From: a bacterium
GTDB taxonomy: Bacteria; Patescibacteriota; Minisyncoccia; UBA6257; GWB1-50-10
Direction of reading: 5' to 3'
Length of the DNA stretch: 64,000 bases
NCBI GenBank assembly: GCA_021801565.1
Contig: JAJYXV010000015.1
Coordinates: forward strand, 155,198 to 219,197
This document shows, in pieces, positions 21,116 through 39,320 of the stretch (positions are counted from its first letter, which is position 1; the number at the start of each line of letters is the position of its first letter). The notes beneath the pieces are model-generated. The model had not been told where the DNA came from. It did not search any database and saw nothing but the letters and a program-made list of their open reading frames with translations. Made by a program: the position numbers and the translations under genes.

Positions 21116-22588
21116 TTGAAGTTTTTTCAAAAAAGTCCGATAATGTATGTGTTATCTGGCTTTTTGTTAACTATGATTAAAAAATCACTAGGTGCAATAG
21201 GAGAAATTGTCATTCACTTCTTCAAAAAAGAAGAAGCATGGCTTGTTTTGTTTCTCCTTGGAATTAGCGGTCTCTTTTTTATTACAATTCCGAAAGTCTC
21301 ACTCTGGGAAATCATTAACTTTATTCTTCTCTTTCTTTCATATACGTGGTGGCTTTGGTTCTTTCTCATTGTGTTTCCCCTTTTTCATTCATTATTTCTT
21401 TTTTGGCGAAATGAAGAATTTAAAAAAGATTTAAAGTTTATTCTTCTTGAAATTCTCATTCCACGAGAGGTTCAAAAAAGCCCACAAGCCATGGAGCAGG
21501 TGCTTGCTGCACTTCATTCCTTAAGGAATGCTCCCGGGGATATTAAGGAAACATATTATGAAGGAGAAGTAACCGTTCCGTTTGGACTTGAAATGATTAG
21601 TTTCGGGGGTGAAATACATTTTTACGTCCGCTGTCAAAAAAAACAACGCAACCTTGTTGAAGCTGCATTTTTTTCATATTATCAAGATGTTGAATTTATT
21701 GAAGTTGAGGATTATGCGAAACAGTTTCCCCAAACACTTGAAGATTTATATGCACAAGGAAAAGATATGTGGGGAACAGAGATGGTGCTTGCAAAACCCG
21801 CCGTATATCCGATTAAATCATATACAACTTTTGAAAGCGAGGCTGAGTCGAAACAATTTGATCCCATCTCCACGTTTTTAGAAGTATTAGGGAAGATAAA
21901 CAAAGAGGAAATTGTGGGAATCCAATTTATTATTGCTCCCGCAGGAAATGAATGGAAGGATAAGTTTAAGAGCGTATTGGATGAGCTTCAGGAACCCGCA
22001 ACTGCAGAAATTGCGTCTGATGAGGGGGGAAGTCGTAAAATTCCTATATCTCGCACTCCTGGGCAATATGATGTGTTGGAGGCTGTGGAAAAAAATCTTT
22101 CAAAGCCTGCATTTAATACCATGCTCCGTTTTATTTACCTGTCTCCCAAGGCGACATACTATGACAGTTTTGCGCGAAGAGGTCTCGTTGGTGCGTTCAA
22201 TCAATATGCTGCATTAAATCTCAACTCTTTTTCTTCAAACCGAGACGTTGCGACACGTACACAAATTTGGAATTGGCCCCATATATTTCCAAAAATCAGA
22301 AATCAATTTCGAAAACAACGCCTTCTTAGAAATTTTTTAATACGTGAAATACCACCAGAAACATGGATGGGTCGCTTTGTTACCTCTTATATATTTAATT
22401 TCAATTTTTCAACAAAACGTTTTTTGATGAATATCGAGTGTCTTGCAACTCTTTTCCACCTTCCTACTGTGGTGGTACTCACTGCTCCGCATATTAAACG
22501 CTCTGAAAGTAAAAAAGCCGGTCCGCCTGCAGGGATAGCAATATTCGGTGAAGACAAAGAATTGGATCAATTTTATCACGATAAATAA
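21116..22588 (+). CDS. hypothetical membrane-anchored protein (3 N-terminal TM helices plus ~370-aa soluble domain)
   Basis: No recognised domain. First gene of the cluster containing the TraG-like ATPase. Confidence 0.4.
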   Translation: MKFFQKSPIMYVLSGFLLTMIKKSLGAIGEIVIHFFKKEEAWLVLFLLGISGLFFITIPKVSLWEIINFILLFLSYTWWLWFFLIVFPLFHSLFLFWRNEEFKKDLKFILLEILIPREVQKSPQAMEQVLAALHSLRNAPGDIKETYYEGEVTVPFGLEMISFGGEIHFYVRCQKKQRNLVEAAFFSYYQDVEFIEVEDYAKQFPQTLEDLYAQGKDMWGTEMVLAKPAVYPIKSYTTFESEAESKQFDPISTFLEVLGKINKEEIVGIQFIIAPAGNEWKDKFKSVLDELQEPATAEIASDEGGSRKIPISRTPGQYDVLEAVEKNLSKPAFNTMLRFIYLSPKATYYDSFARRGLVGAFNQYAALNLNSFSSNRDVATRTQIWNWPHIFPKIRNQFRKQRLLRNFLIREIPPETWMGRFVTSYIFNFNFSTKRFLMNIECLATLFHLPTVVVLTAPHIKRSESKKAGPPAGIAIFGEDKELDQFYHDK

Positions 22589-22594
22589 TATATT

Positions 22595-23125
22595 ATGGAT
22601 TGGATAAACAAAATTATATCGTATATTGTAGGTATAAATTGGGAAGGCGTTTTTTATATAGTGCGCTGGATATTTATTACGCTTGATGTTATTCTCGTTA
22701 TTCTTTTTGTTTTAGTGTTTAAGAAGGCACTCGAACATCGTCCGAAATTTGTTGCATTTCCAGGAGGGAAAAAATCGAGAAGGAAAAAAACAGAAATGAA
22801 AAAATTCGATTTTTCCCCACAGTGGAAAAAAATTCTTACTACCGTTGAAGCGGGGGAATCAGATGCGTTACTCCTTGCCATTATCGAGGCTGATAAACTT
22901 GCTGATACCGCATTGAAAAGTCTTAAATTTGAAGGGGAATATATTGCGGAACGTCTTGAACGAGCTGGAAAAATTATGGATTTGAAAACGATTGATGATG
23001 TGTGGCGCGTGCATCGTATTCGCAATAACCTTGTGCATACTCCCGGGTTTCATATTTCTCAATCACAAGCCAATGATGTTTTAAAGGTGTATGAGAAATT
23101 CTTAAAGGAATTAAATGTGTTATGA
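22595..23125 (+). CDS. hypothetical single-TM protein, start-stop overlapped (ATGA) with the downstream ATPase
   Basis: N-terminal TM (IFITLDVILVILFVLVF). Overlaps the ATPase gene by 4 nt, implying translational coupling. Confidence 0.4.
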   Translation: MDWINKIISYIVGINWEGVFYIVRWIFITLDVILVILFVLVFKKALEHRPKFVAFPGGKKSRRKKTEMKKFDFSPQWKKILTTVEAGESDALLLAIIEADKLADTALKSLKFEGEYIAERLERAGKIMDLKTIDDVWRVHRIRNNLVHTPGFHISQSQANDVLKVYEKFLKELNVL

Positions 23126-36899: not shown

Positions 36900-38396
36900 T
36901 TGGTAATTAGAAATTTATTTATTATGCCTCTCCCAGAGAAATTTTTCTTTGGATCATGTTTTTTCCTCTTTGGTGTTTTGTGTGCGAGTATTTCATTCGG
37001 AATATTTACTATTATTATTACAAGTGTTACGGCACTTTTTTCTTTATTCTTATTTTTTGGTATAAAAAAGAAAATATATCTATCATTTTTCTTTCTTCTT
37101 TTTCTTATTCCAGTTGGTTCAGTTTATTACACGTTGCGAGATCAGTTAATGGTACGTATTTCTCCAAACTCAATCATTAACGCTGACGTGATGATAACGC
37201 AAGATGTTCGCGTTCTTGAGAATTCACAGGAAGCAGTGGTAGATATACTCAATAAAGAAAAATGGAAAAGTGGACGTGTACTTTTGCGTCTCAGAAAATT
37301 TCCGGAAGTGCACTATGGTGATCTTTTGCATATTAAAGGAAGAGTTGAGTATCCAAGCGAAAAAGGATATGCCGGGTATCTCGAAAAAGAGGGAATTTCT
37401 GGAATTATTGCATTTCCTGATTTTATTTTTCTTGGAGAAAATAGAGGATCGCAAGTGTTAAAAGTTCTCTTTGGTATAAAAAATTTTGCAATTCATTCAT
37501 TTGAAAAGGTGTTACCGCCGAAAGAAAGCGCATTTCTTTCTGGGGTGATAGTGGGAGATACCAGCGGATTTTCAAAGGAGTTTAAAACAGCAATGTCCAA
37601 AAGCGGAACGTCTCATCTTGTTGCGCTTTCTGGATATAATATTTCTATCCTTGTTTCGGCAATTATGACGATGTGTGGGCGATTTTTTTCCCGCCGCGTT
37701 GCACGATGGATTGCTGGGGTGTGTATATTGGGTTTCGTAATCATGACTGGTGGGCAAGCATCAGTGGTTCGTGCGGCAATTATGGGATGTGTGCTTCTTT
37801 TTGTTGGCACATGGAGAGCAAAAAATCCGCGTAATCTTCTTGTGTGTACAGCGCTTGGTATGGTGCTCTGGAGTCCAAAAATACTTACCTTTGATGTCGG
37901 GTTTCAACTTTCTTTTTTTGCACTTTTGGGAATTGTCTACCTTCGCCCCGCACTTCAGGAGTTATTTCATTTTTCGAATAATTCAGGAATATTTTTATGG
38001 AGAGAAAATTTTCTTTCGACTACAGCAGCGCAGTTGGCAGTGCTTCCAATTCTCATTTTGTCATTTGGGGGAGTTTCCGGGACTGCACTTATTGCGAATA
38101 TATGTATTCTGGGAATTATTCCAGTCACCATGGGTCTTGGTTTTTCGATTATATTTTCAAGTATTTTCTCTTTTTATATTTCTCTCGTTTTTGGGTGGAT
38201 CACATGGATATTTTTAAAACTTGAAATTGAAATCATCGAATTTTTTGCACGTATTACACAGCCAATCGATATGTCAGTAAACACATATATGATTATTCTG
38301 TATTATTTTTTTCTTATATATCTTGTGTGGTATATGAATAAGAGGACGATGACAACAATCAAGACTGATAACAATAATTTCAAAAGAATGGGATAA
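36900..38396 (+). CDS. comEC: ComEC/Rec2 DNA-uptake channel, N-terminal plus competence (TM) domains
   Basis: DUF4131-like N-terminus. Competence-domain block SGTSHLVALSGYNISIL with multiple TM helices. Confidence 0.65.
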   Translation: MVIRNLFIMPLPEKFFFGSCFFLFGVLCASISFGIFTIIITSVTALFSLFLFFGIKKKIYLSFFFLLFLIPVGSVYYTLRDQLMVRISPNSIINADVMITQDVRVLENSQEAVVDILNKEKWKSGRVLLRLRKFPEVHYGDLLHIKGRVEYPSEKGYAGYLEKEGISGIIAFPDFIFLGENRGSQVLKVLFGIKNFAIHSFEKVLPPKESAFLSGVIVGDTSGFSKEFKTAMSKSGTSHLVALSGYNISILVSAIMTMCGRFFSRRVARWIAGVCILGFVIMTGGQASVVRAAIMGCVLLFVGTWRAKNPRNLLVCTALGMVLWSPKILTFDVGFQLSFFALLGIVYLRPALQELFHFSNNSGIFLWRENFLSTTAAQLAVLPILILSFGGVSGTALIANICILGIIPVTMGLGFSIIFSSIFSFYISLVFGWITWIFLKLEIEIIEFFARITQPIDMSVNTYMIILYYFFLIYLVWYMNKRTMTTIKTDNNNFKRMG

Positions 38397-38405
38397 AATA
38401 GAATT

Positions 38406-39320
38406 ATGGATGAAAGGAAAACACCAATTGAGAGAATAGTTGGGTTGCTGCAACTAAAAAAACGGAAACACATTGTTCTCACACTTCTTATTGGATGTGT
38501 GTTATTTGACGCTGTCTGGATTTTCAACTTTATTTCAGCAATGGAAAAAGTGGGAGTAATATATTTTTTGAATGTCGGACAAGGCGATAGCGAACTTGTA
38601 ATATTTCCCAGCGGGGTAAAATTGCTGATTGATGGCGGCCCGCCAAACGGAAAGGTAGAACAAGAACTTTCTCGAATTGTCGGCTCGTTCGACAGATATA
38701 TCGATCTTGTGGTACTAAGTCATCCGCAGATAGATCATTTTGGCGGACTCATTCGTTTATTTCAGGACTATCGTGTCGGCGCATTTCTTACCAATGGGGA
38801 AATATCAGGAGATGATGCTTATACGTCTCTTATTGGTAATTTGGAAAAACAAGATTCAAAAAAAGTTGCGGTATATGCAGGTGATATGATACAACAAGGA
38901 AATATTTCGTTTCGCATATTGTCACCACAAATTACTGATCATAAGAGTCAAAAAAAAGAAAATCCGAATGATCGCGCGATTATAGGGAAGCTTTCAATGA
39001 ATCAAGTGAATATTTTGTTTACCGGAGATATCGGAGAGAATATTGAAAACGCATTTGCTTCGTCTTTTGAAAAAACAGATGTACTAAAAGTTGCACACCA
39101 TGGATCAAAAAACTCATCAAGTGAGGAGTTTGTCTCTATTGTTCAGCCAAAAATCGCGGTGATTGAAGTTGGAAAAAATTCATATGGCCACCCATCTTCC
39201 GATGTAATTCAACGACTTTTAAATAAAGGTGCATCGATATTTCGGACTGATATTGACGGAACAATAAAGATTATTTTTGAAAATGGATCGGCTCGCATTT
39301 TTTCCCTCCCCGATGTGTAA
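38406..39320 (+). CDS. ComEC C-terminal metallo-beta-lactamase domain (separate ORF, same frame, 1 stop after the upstream part)
   Basis: VLSHPQIDHFGG (HxHxDH) and AHHGSKNSS are typical of the ComEC lactamase_B domain. Confidence 0.65.
   Translation: MDERKTPIERIVGLLQLKKRKHIVLTLLIGCVLFDAVWIFNFISAMEKVGVIYFLNVGQGDSELVIFPSGVKLLIDGGPPNGKVEQELSRIVGSFDRYIDLVVLSHPQIDHFGGLIRLFQDYRVGAFLTNGEISGDDAYTSLIGNLEKQDSKKVAVYAGDMIQQGNISFRILSPQITDHKSQKKENPNDRAIIGKLSMNQVNILFTGDIGENIENAFASSFEKTDVLKVAHHGSKNSSSEEFVSIVQPKIAVIEVGKNSYGHPSSDVIQRLLNKGASIFRTDIDGTIKIIFENGSARIFSLPDV

Follow-up and report, generated by a model that had tools for sequence, protein, structure and literature searches.

A candidate membrane-anchored VirB4/VirD4-type motor and linked arrays of Cys-rich, zinc-ribbon-like proteins in a core chromosomal region of Patescibacteria

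With what partners, and on what substrate, do the type IV coupling protein (T4CP)-like ATPases of Patescibacteria act? This question is raised by a stretch of 64,000 nucleotides (hereafter the window; positions 155,198 to 219,197 of contig JAJYXV010000015.1, assembly GCA_021801565.1), in which two paralogous soluble ATPases, a DUF8128 membrane protein, and four large Cys-rich paralogues are encoded between positions 21116 and 39320 of the window. Much of bacterial diversity belongs to Patescibacteria, whose genomes measure about 1 Mb. Across 2,918 of their genomes, 5,713 VirD4-type T4CP homologues (about two per genome) have been recorded, only 148 of them near virB4, and the authors of that survey raised the possibility that these proteins were 'exapted for other functions' while leaving their role open (PMC12102498). 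Our locus offers parts for this orphan-T4CP question: an anchor with a predicted VirB4 N-terminal-domain fold, a conserved helix-turn-helix (HTH) neighbour, and arrays of the Cys-rich family. The explanation that we favour, and to which we would give an even chance, is a membrane-anchored VirB4/VirD4-type motor (DUF8128, a small transmembrane [TM] protein, and ATPase A) that would be independent of a canonical type IV secretion system (T4SS), with cytoplasmic zinc proteins as docking partners, adaptors, or clients of both motors.

The two ATPases, ATPase A (23122-24594) and ATPase B (29040-30944), are both encoded on the forward strand and shared 47% identity across 415 aligned residues (E = 2e-138), with Walker A motifs (GKSGVGKS / GKTGTGKT) and the segment YVDEFQN...AHQY.GQL legible in their translations. 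An earlier note on this DNA had described them as paralogous P-loop ATPases of the TraG/VirD4 type; this description was borne out, and every open reading frame (ORF) that it had named was recovered in place. The Pfam models TrwB_AAD_bind (30.1 bits for ATPase A and 62.4 bits for ATPase B; cut-off, 20.5), DUF87 (29.0 and 40.9 bits; cut-off, 23.2), T4SS-DNA_transf (25.0 and 31.5 bits; cut-off, 20.1), and TraG-D_C (22.6 and 29.5 bits; cut-off, 22.0) were all exceeded by both proteins, the DUF87 match being a signal at the level of the superfamily and overlapping the T4CP matches. Their best solved sequence relatives were TrwB and, more weakly, DotL. Scores against the NCBIfam coupling-protein models remained far below the cut-offs (TIGR03743, 42.9 bits for ATPase A and 62.3 bits for ATPase B versus 366; NF045973, 42.5 and 44.6 versus 250 bits), as did those of the motor against the VirB4 family models (TIGR00929, 15.6 versus 643 bits; TrbE, 24.2 versus 1020). 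This distance from the TraD, VirD4, and VirB4 equivalogs indicates divergent T4CP-like proteins and no orthologues of conjugative T4CPs. Orthologues occurred in other Patescibacteria lineages with 68-79% (ATPase A) and 59-73% (ATPase B) identity. ATPase B further contained a C-terminal CxxC-x17-CxxC zinc ribbon (residues 442-473), which scored 54.5 bits against zf_Tbcl_2 (PF23477; cut-off, 27) and 56.2 bits against TIGR04272 (cut-off, 36), followed by a low-complexity tail of about 150 residues.

The earlier note had also pointed to the missing TM anchor of both ATPases. This holds in cis, as no hydrophobic or TM segment was detected in ATPase A or B, and requires revision in trans, where the adjacent DUF8128 protein is predicted to provide a membrane anchor resembling the N-terminal domain of VirB4. 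Encoded at 21116-22588 on the forward strand (database gene calls start at 21143, the likely start), the DUF8128 protein (PF26449, according to the precomputed annotation of an identical database protein) had the layout already noted for this gene, with N-terminal TM helices followed by a large soluble domain of about 380 residues. Its AlphaFold2 model, built with 42 homologues, consisted of N-terminal helices and an alpha/beta domain (predicted local distance difference test [pLDDT], 85; predicted template modelling score, 0.78), and the soluble domain is predicted to have a VirB4 N-terminal-domain-like fold. Comparison of the DUF8128 profile with PDB sequences returned no match, and the likeness to VirB4 is one of modelled structure. 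The association between DUF8128 and the ATPase was also visible within single proteins. Two of the loci compared here contained single ORFs joining DUF8128 to a T4CP-like ATPase, one of 921 aa (locus L025, 13059-15824) and one of 790 aa with an N-terminal TM segment (locus L057, 1379-3751). A search with the latter recovered 2,894 relatives at E <= 1e-10, and the best 120 of these, of about 780-826 aa, matched over the full length, all with PF26449 and at least one of PF10412, PF01935, PF02534, and PF12696. These fusions provide a strong Rosetta-stone argument for DUF8128 and the ATPase acting as one unit. The fused protein, with N-terminal TM segment, DUF8128, and ATPase in about 790 aa, represents a third form of the motor that is abundant in Patescibacteria.

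Conservation of this gene order was traced in two sets of loci: a Cys-centred set of 80 genome loci (1.4 Mb, with about 205-212 Cys-family copies depending on the counting method) and an ATPase-centred set of 80 independent metagenome loci (99 ATPase genes, many contigs being short). The loci of both sets are related by phylogeny, so that co-occurrence counts exceed what independent events alone would give. DUF8128 lay directly upstream of the ATPase in 37/80 ATPase-centred loci, and in 23/80 it was itself preceded by the gene for a basic DNA-binding-type protein, here called S (19942-20991 in the window, forward strand; pI 9.3), with a Sigma70 region 4 HTH (Pfam Sigma70_r4, 1.7e-15) and a HARE-HTH domain (2.1e-7). 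The order S-DUF8128-(t)-ATPase, in which t denotes the small TM protein, was found in 12/80 Cys-centred and 23/80 ATPase-centred loci, and t itself was located between DUF8128 and the ATPase in 8/80 and 14/80 loci, respectively. These counts define S-DUF8128-(t)-ATPase as a conserved core that reaches lineages without Cys-rich genes. A perfect hairpin with a 14-bp stem (TAACCCCCTCGAATATATATTCGAGGGGGTTA) at 21013-21044, probably a terminator, separates S from DUF8128 in the window despite the conserved neighbourhood.

The small TM protein (176 aa; 22595-23125, forward strand) contained one TM segment (residues 17-48) and a C-terminal helical domain, and its gene overlaps that of ATPase A in an ATGA, as the earlier note had read from the sequence. 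The motif W.AH[RK].RN.L.H in the helical domain, an Rx4H pattern of HEPN-like type, was invariant in 9/9 orthologues of the small TM protein, which had no match in Pfam. The motif would place a candidate membrane-tethered HEPN-like domain beside a translocation ATPase.

The second element of the locus, four Cys-rich paralogues of 548-594 aa, all on the forward strand, was found as previously described. Paralogue 1 (587 aa; 25476-27239) is composed of a double Zn-ribbon-like module, two beta-solenoid-like repeats, an alpha/beta linker, and a second double Zn-ribbon-like module. Paralogue 2 (548 aa; 27244-28890), in which the second N-terminal ribbon has been lost, begins 4 nt past paralogue 1 and ends 149 nt upstream of ATPase B. 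Paralogue 3 (594 aa; 33318-35102) begins 29 nt past mnmA, and paralogue 4 (35123-36829) comprises 568 aa from the ATG at 35123, a sensible start because the resulting N-terminus matches that of paralogue 3. The four proteins had a Cys content of 5.2-6.4% and pairwise identities of 28-41% (tblastn; E = 1e-61 to 1e-138), with no TM segment or signal peptide detected in any of them. The 5' ends of the genes for paralogue 3 (33301-33450) and paralogue 4 (35106-35255) shared 86% DNA identity, including 17 nt before the start codons, although overall identity of the encoded proteins was only 37%, which points to local gene conversion or to a translation-initiation region common to both.

The family had been left unplaced, and our searches gave the same result, with no Pfam, NCBIfam, or PADLOC family above threshold and no sequence relative in the PDB. 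With a profile of the four paralogues, at least 7,994 clusters (90% identity) were recovered. When 1.84 billion representatives were scanned exhaustively with HMMER, 5,590 proteins (50%-identity clusters) matched at E <= 1e-3, of which 2,310 also did so at E <= 1e-30. Their length was nearly uniform (540-600 aa), and all matches carrying a name were from Patescibacteria, nearly all of them called 'hypothetical protein'. The single marginal match among 2.9 million viral contigs indicates that the family is not phage-borne.

Profile comparison with hhalign exposed an internal symmetry: the N-terminal double-ribbon module (residues 2-82) was homologous to the C-terminal module (probability, 99.5%; E = 3.7e-22), and so were the two central halves to each other (probability, 99.6%; E = 1.8e-24), each ending in CFGC.GL.NK.YCI.N.QY.KEEYE, a motif also seen as eight DNA-level repeats, two per gene. 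Across 52 sequences, C7, C10, C35, C38, C535, C560, and C578 were invariant, and C57, C60, C78, C81, and C581 were at least 90% conserved; the invariant cysteines belong to the CxxC pairs of the ribbons, and those of the solenoid were mostly variable. The first ribbon matched zf_Tbcl below threshold, and the second had the exact CxxC-x17-CxxC spacing that is present in ATPase B. Alignment of the ATPase B ribbon with the second ribbon of the Cys module gave probabilities of 95% (N-terminal) and 89% (C-terminal), compared with 7-8% for control segments. By these profile comparisons, the ribbons of the family are distant relatives of zf_Tbcl and zf_Tbcl_2, outside curated membership. The CxxC-x17-CxxC domain has been shown by inductively coupled plasma mass spectrometry to bind zinc in small proteins of Methanosarcina mazei (PMC12704099), and the Cys-rich proteins would likewise be expected to bind zinc. 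Their terminal modules are basic (C-terminal module, pI 9.1), the body is acidic, and weak structural matches of the family included Cys-laddered antifreeze solenoids.

Median identity was 39% within a locus, among tandem neighbours, and 58% for the best cross-genome match. Recent lineage-specific expansion was thus ruled out, as tandem neighbours are more diverged than their counterparts in other genomes, and the arrays, judged by these identities, are maintained sets of ancient diverged genes.

The evidence that connects these proteins to the motors is their genomic neighbourhood. In the Cys-centred set, a T4CP-like ATPase was the commonest neighbour of Cys genes (26/80 loci, 37 genes by tblastn), followed by DUF8128 (15), S (12), CutA (9), and SecF (8), which are part of the motor module or lie beside it. 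Unbiased ORF clustering returned a cluster of ATPase and DUF8128 (merged through the fusion ORFs) in 30 of these loci and any other cluster in no more than 11. The 37 ATPase genes in 1.4 Mb compare with approximately 3-4 expected by chance, a value derived from about two T4CP homologues per genome (PMC12102498) and an assumed genome of about 1 Mb. Viewed from the ATPases, 41/99 genes of the ATPase-centred set had a Cys gene in the locus, as did 20/28 loci of the A type (ATPase A identity of 68% or more). The nearest Cys gene lay within 1 kb of the ATPase in 33/37 (Cys-centred) and 38/41 (ATPase-centred) cases and on the same strand in 35/37 and 41/41 cases. Cys genes occurred in tandem arrays of up to nine copies, and with C, A, B, and D standing for Cys, ATPase A, ATPase B, and DUF8128 genes, the recurrent orders were S-D-t-A-CutA-C...C-B, C-A, and A-C. 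Both ATPase paralogues were flanked by Cys genes. The linkage on which the earlier note had staked its proposal is therefore present in other genomes; together with the confirmed TraG-D_C and DUF87 matches and the lack of any characterised family among the relatives of the Cys-rich proteins, none of the findings that it had named as refuting was obtained.

CutA1, a divalent-cation-tolerance protein (24787-25092, forward strand; Pfam CutA1, 2.6e-30), is encoded between ATPase A and paralogue 1. It also occurred in 8/80 ATPase-centred loci, and in both sets its gene was usually immediately upstream of a Cys gene, often by just 6-76 nt in other genomes. This recurrence may indicate a metal connection of the Cys family.

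Spacing and terminator-like hairpins suggest the following candidate transcription units in the window: DUF8128, the small TM protein, and ATPase A; CutA with a 58-aa ORF; paralogue 1, paralogue 2, and ATPase B; EF-P, on the opposite strand; and mnmA, paralogue 3, paralogue 4, and comEC.

Taken together, these observations can be accommodated in the following model. DUF8128 would supply TM helices and a VirB4 N-terminal-domain-like cytoplasmic domain and thereby anchor ATPase A, presumably as a hexamer, while the small TM protein, translationally coupled to ATPase A, would complete a three-polypeptide motor. The three polypeptides would reproduce the TM, N-domain, and motor architecture that many relatives possess as a single protein of about 790 aa. 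ATPase B would serve as a second soluble motor with a zinc ribbon and a disordered tail, and the Cys-rich proteins would be cytoplasmic partners of the motors, plausibly binding through the common ribbon. Their cooperation with the motors is suggested by the fact that the two are preferred, tightly adjacent, and co-oriented neighbours, that paralogue 1, paralogue 2, and ATPase B appear to form one transcription unit, and that ATPase B has the same type of ribbon. The substrate that would be transported may be DNA or protein: DNA would be in keeping with the T4CP ancestry of the motors and with the basic HTH protein conserved beside them, whereas protein or varied ligands would better suit the large number of paralogous partners. 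A broader proposal, which we advance only tentatively and regard as possible though well short of an even chance, is that DUF8128 and the T4CP-like ATPase constitute the VirB4-like motor of a translocation machine independent of T4SS, for which Paceibacteria have recruited dedicated zinc-ribbon/beta-solenoid proteins as adaptors or cargo.

Several observations weigh against a partnership between the Cys-rich proteins and the motors. No ATPase was present within 10 kb in 54/80 Cys-centred loci (several loci being truncated), and S-DUF8128-ATPase persists in more distant lineages that have no Cys genes, which marks the Cys family as an accessory of one clade and no core part of the motor. For the ATPase-adjacent copies, identity within positional groups was about equal to that between groups (approximately 39-40%), by which a dedicated ATPase-partner subfamily was ruled out, and the best cross-genome match of a copy rarely shared its position; this lack of a positional subfamily argues against a co-evolving one-to-one partner. 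No Cys-ATPase fusion was found among the 270 listed relatives of the Cys family, and since the loci are phylogenetically related, the enrichment does not count independent events. The ribbons of the family scored below the Pfam cut-offs (zf_Tbcl, 17-21 bits versus 24; zf_Tbcl_2, 13-14.5 bits versus 27), and the central solenoid was modelled at a pLDDT of only about 65-70. The ATPase-free loci, the absence of a partner-specific subfamily, and the retention of the motor without Cys genes equally suit a reading without any functional link, in which the neighbourhood is synteny inherited within a conserved core region of Paceibacteria and the Cys-rich proteins have an unrelated cytoplasmic role, such as metal handling with CutA or nucleic-acid binding. 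The housekeeping character of the window and the frequent position of CutA immediately upstream of a Cys gene fit this reading as well. We nevertheless consider it somewhat unlikely, because adjacency recurs at both ATPase paralogues and in varied orders (C-A, A-C, C-C-A-u-C-A), the ATPase is the commonest Cys neighbour by tblastn as well as by ORF clustering, and the CxxC-x17-CxxC ribbon common to ATPase B and the Cys family is independent of synteny. The missing positional subfamily would also fit interchangeable cargo, and the Cys-rich proteins could be effectors or adhesins exported out of the cell or into a host, their cysteines stabilising an extracellular beta-solenoid, with the motor acting alone or with further channel parts. 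The close association of the Cys genes with secretion-type ATPases, the multiplicity of paralogues in each genome, with arrays of up to nine (common for host-interaction proteins), and the weak structural resemblance to Cys-laddered antifreeze solenoids are consistent with export, and the basic C-terminal module is reminiscent of C-terminal T4SS signals. The pattern of conservation points the other way: the invariant cysteines form ribbon-type CxxC pairs as in cytoplasmic zinc proteins, the same ribbon is carried by the cytoplasmic ATPase B, the solenoid cysteines are mostly variable, and the paralogues are ancient and conserved with no fast evolution. No channel component and no gene for VirB2, VirB3, VirB4, VirB6, or VirB8 was detected among the window ORFs scanned, and export of the Cys-rich proteins appears quite unlikely.

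The earlier note had itself proposed a single DNA-uptake or transfer apparatus comprising the ATPases, the Cys-rich proteins, ComEC, and pili. T4CPs are DNA-dependent motors, the weak NCBIfam matches of our ATPases included the archaeal DNA-import ATPase CedD, the basic HTH protein conserved upstream of the motor fits a DNA substrate, and comEC directly follows paralogue 4 in the window. The comEC gene is indeed split, as that note had stated, its domains being divided over 36900-38396 (DUF4131, 37 bits; Competence, 145 bits) and 38406-39320 (its own TM segment and a metallo-beta-lactamase domain; Lactamase_B, 46.5 bits), both on the forward strand. In the comparison sets, however, ComEC was near the Cys family in 4/80 loci and near the ATPases in 5/80, by which it was ruled out as a system component; it is an incidental neighbour. 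The pilus genes reported from elsewhere in the window could not be recovered: no pilus, relaxase, or VirB4 gene was found among the window ORFs scanned, which are housekeeping genes. A combined apparatus of this kind is thus very unlikely. Even less credence, in our view, is due to an anti-phage defence system built from a HerA/FtsK-like ATPase, a HEPN-like effector, and zinc-finger sensors. Both ATPases weakly matched the PADLOC models mad8 and HerA, the small TM protein contains the Rx4H motif, and the many paralogues could be regarded as putative sensors; PADLOC had no match, however, for any non-ATPase component (the Cys family, DUF8128, and the small TM protein), the Cys family is almost absent from viral contigs, and the high identity of the ATPase orthologues in a fixed core-genome context is unlike patchy mobile defence islands.

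The genomic setting is that of a core chromosome. The window (GC content of about 37%, nearly all genes on the forward strand) is a housekeeping region and no island, with genes for FtsA, FtsZ, Ddl, SecD, SecF, EF-P, MnmA, RmuC, SecA, MltG, HisRS, aldolase, and others around the locus. Contigs of two data sets, NCBI assembly GCA_027423565.1 and an ENA metagenome, encode identical proteins, and the nearest named relatives were Candidatus Jorgensenbacteria and other Paceibacteria-type Patescibacteria. Several further features of the window were recorded. Neither half of ComEC alone reached the TIGR00361 equivalog cut-off, and three other Patescibacteria loci (L128, L143, and L163) also gave two separate ComEC matches, from which the arrangement looks like a natural split and no frameshift. 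Downstream of comEC, 39849-40901 encodes an RmuC-family protein with an N-terminal TM segment, and 41270-42061 encodes a very basic protein (pI 10.3) whose C-terminus resembles DUF559/MTES_1575 endonucleases. A 31-nt repeat of the TAACTAGTAA type occurred in three copies (31574-31604, 32477-32507, and 33107-33137), two of which, within mnmA, encode low-complexity insertions (…SNQQSVNSKNYELPITSY… and …SNKESVTSKDRKLQVTSY…), the other being located in the EF-P/mnmA intergenic region. At 57142-57897, a gene for a peptide-chain release factor encodes only about 245-251 aa, which align to the PCRF profile from position 97 onwards; its product appears to lack the N-terminal domain, and the gene does not look like a simple frameshift because a terminator-like hairpin and a promoter-like site are present just upstream.

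Orphan T4CP homologues were already known from Patescibacteria (PMC12102498), as was DUF8128 as a Pfam domain of unknown function. The literature on DUF8128, CxxC-x17-CxxC, Patescibacteria Cys-rich or zinc-ribbon proteins, and DUF87/TraG gave no account of the Cys family, of a VirB4-like fold in DUF8128, or of the pairing or fusion of DUF8128 with T4CPs. The predicted VirB4-like fold of DUF8128, its pairing or fusion with T4CP-like ATPases, and the Cys-rich family are therefore apparently new. With thousands of members and neither a Pfam model nor a solved relative, the Cys family merits a definition of its own. If it is the adaptor or cargo set of the motors, it would define a lineage-specific transport pathway; and if the broader proposal of a T4SS-independent machine holds, this machine would represent a new secretion or uptake pathway for an episymbiotic lifestyle and would account for the two or so orphan T4CP genes in each genome.

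Comparison with known systems places these parts in context. Likeness to the ESX (type VII) pair EccC and EccE was much weaker than to VirB4; ATPases A and B have a single P-loop domain, and no gene for EccB, EccD, or WXG100 proteins was present among the window ORFs scanned. The Legionella Dot/Icm system offers a parallel for small zinc-binding partners, as the C-terminal tail of its T4CP, DotL, recruits small adaptors including the zinc-binding DotN, in a complex with DotM, IcmS, IcmW, and LvgA. No sequence or fold relation between that complex and the Cys family was detected, and the Cys-rich proteins differ in being multi-domain proteins of about 570 aa with many paralogues. Among the known zf_Tbcl and zf_Tbcl_2 ribbons, that of ATPase B passes the curated thresholds, whereas the terminal modules of the Cys family appear to be distant versions of both types and enclose a duplicated solenoid-like body without known relatives. 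With the type IV coupling proteins (TrwB of R388, VirD4, TraD/TraG, and DotL), both ATPases share the P-loop motor domain and its Pfam signatures. The T4CPs, however, typically carry their TM anchor in cis and are encoded with a T4SS (VirB4 and mating-pair formation genes), a relaxase, or both, none of which was found near ATPases A and B in the ORFs scanned; the latter have no N-terminal TM segment, are paired or fused with a module predicted to resemble the VirB4 N-domain, and in ATPase B have a zinc ribbon after the motor. As for VirB4/TrwK (together with VirB3), the motors of ATPases A and B score closer to VirD4 and DUF8128 has no sequence-level similarity to VirB4, but the modelled architecture is the same overall, with TM helices, a VirB4-fold N-domain, and a RecA-like motor that are split over separate polypeptides here and fused into one in relatives.

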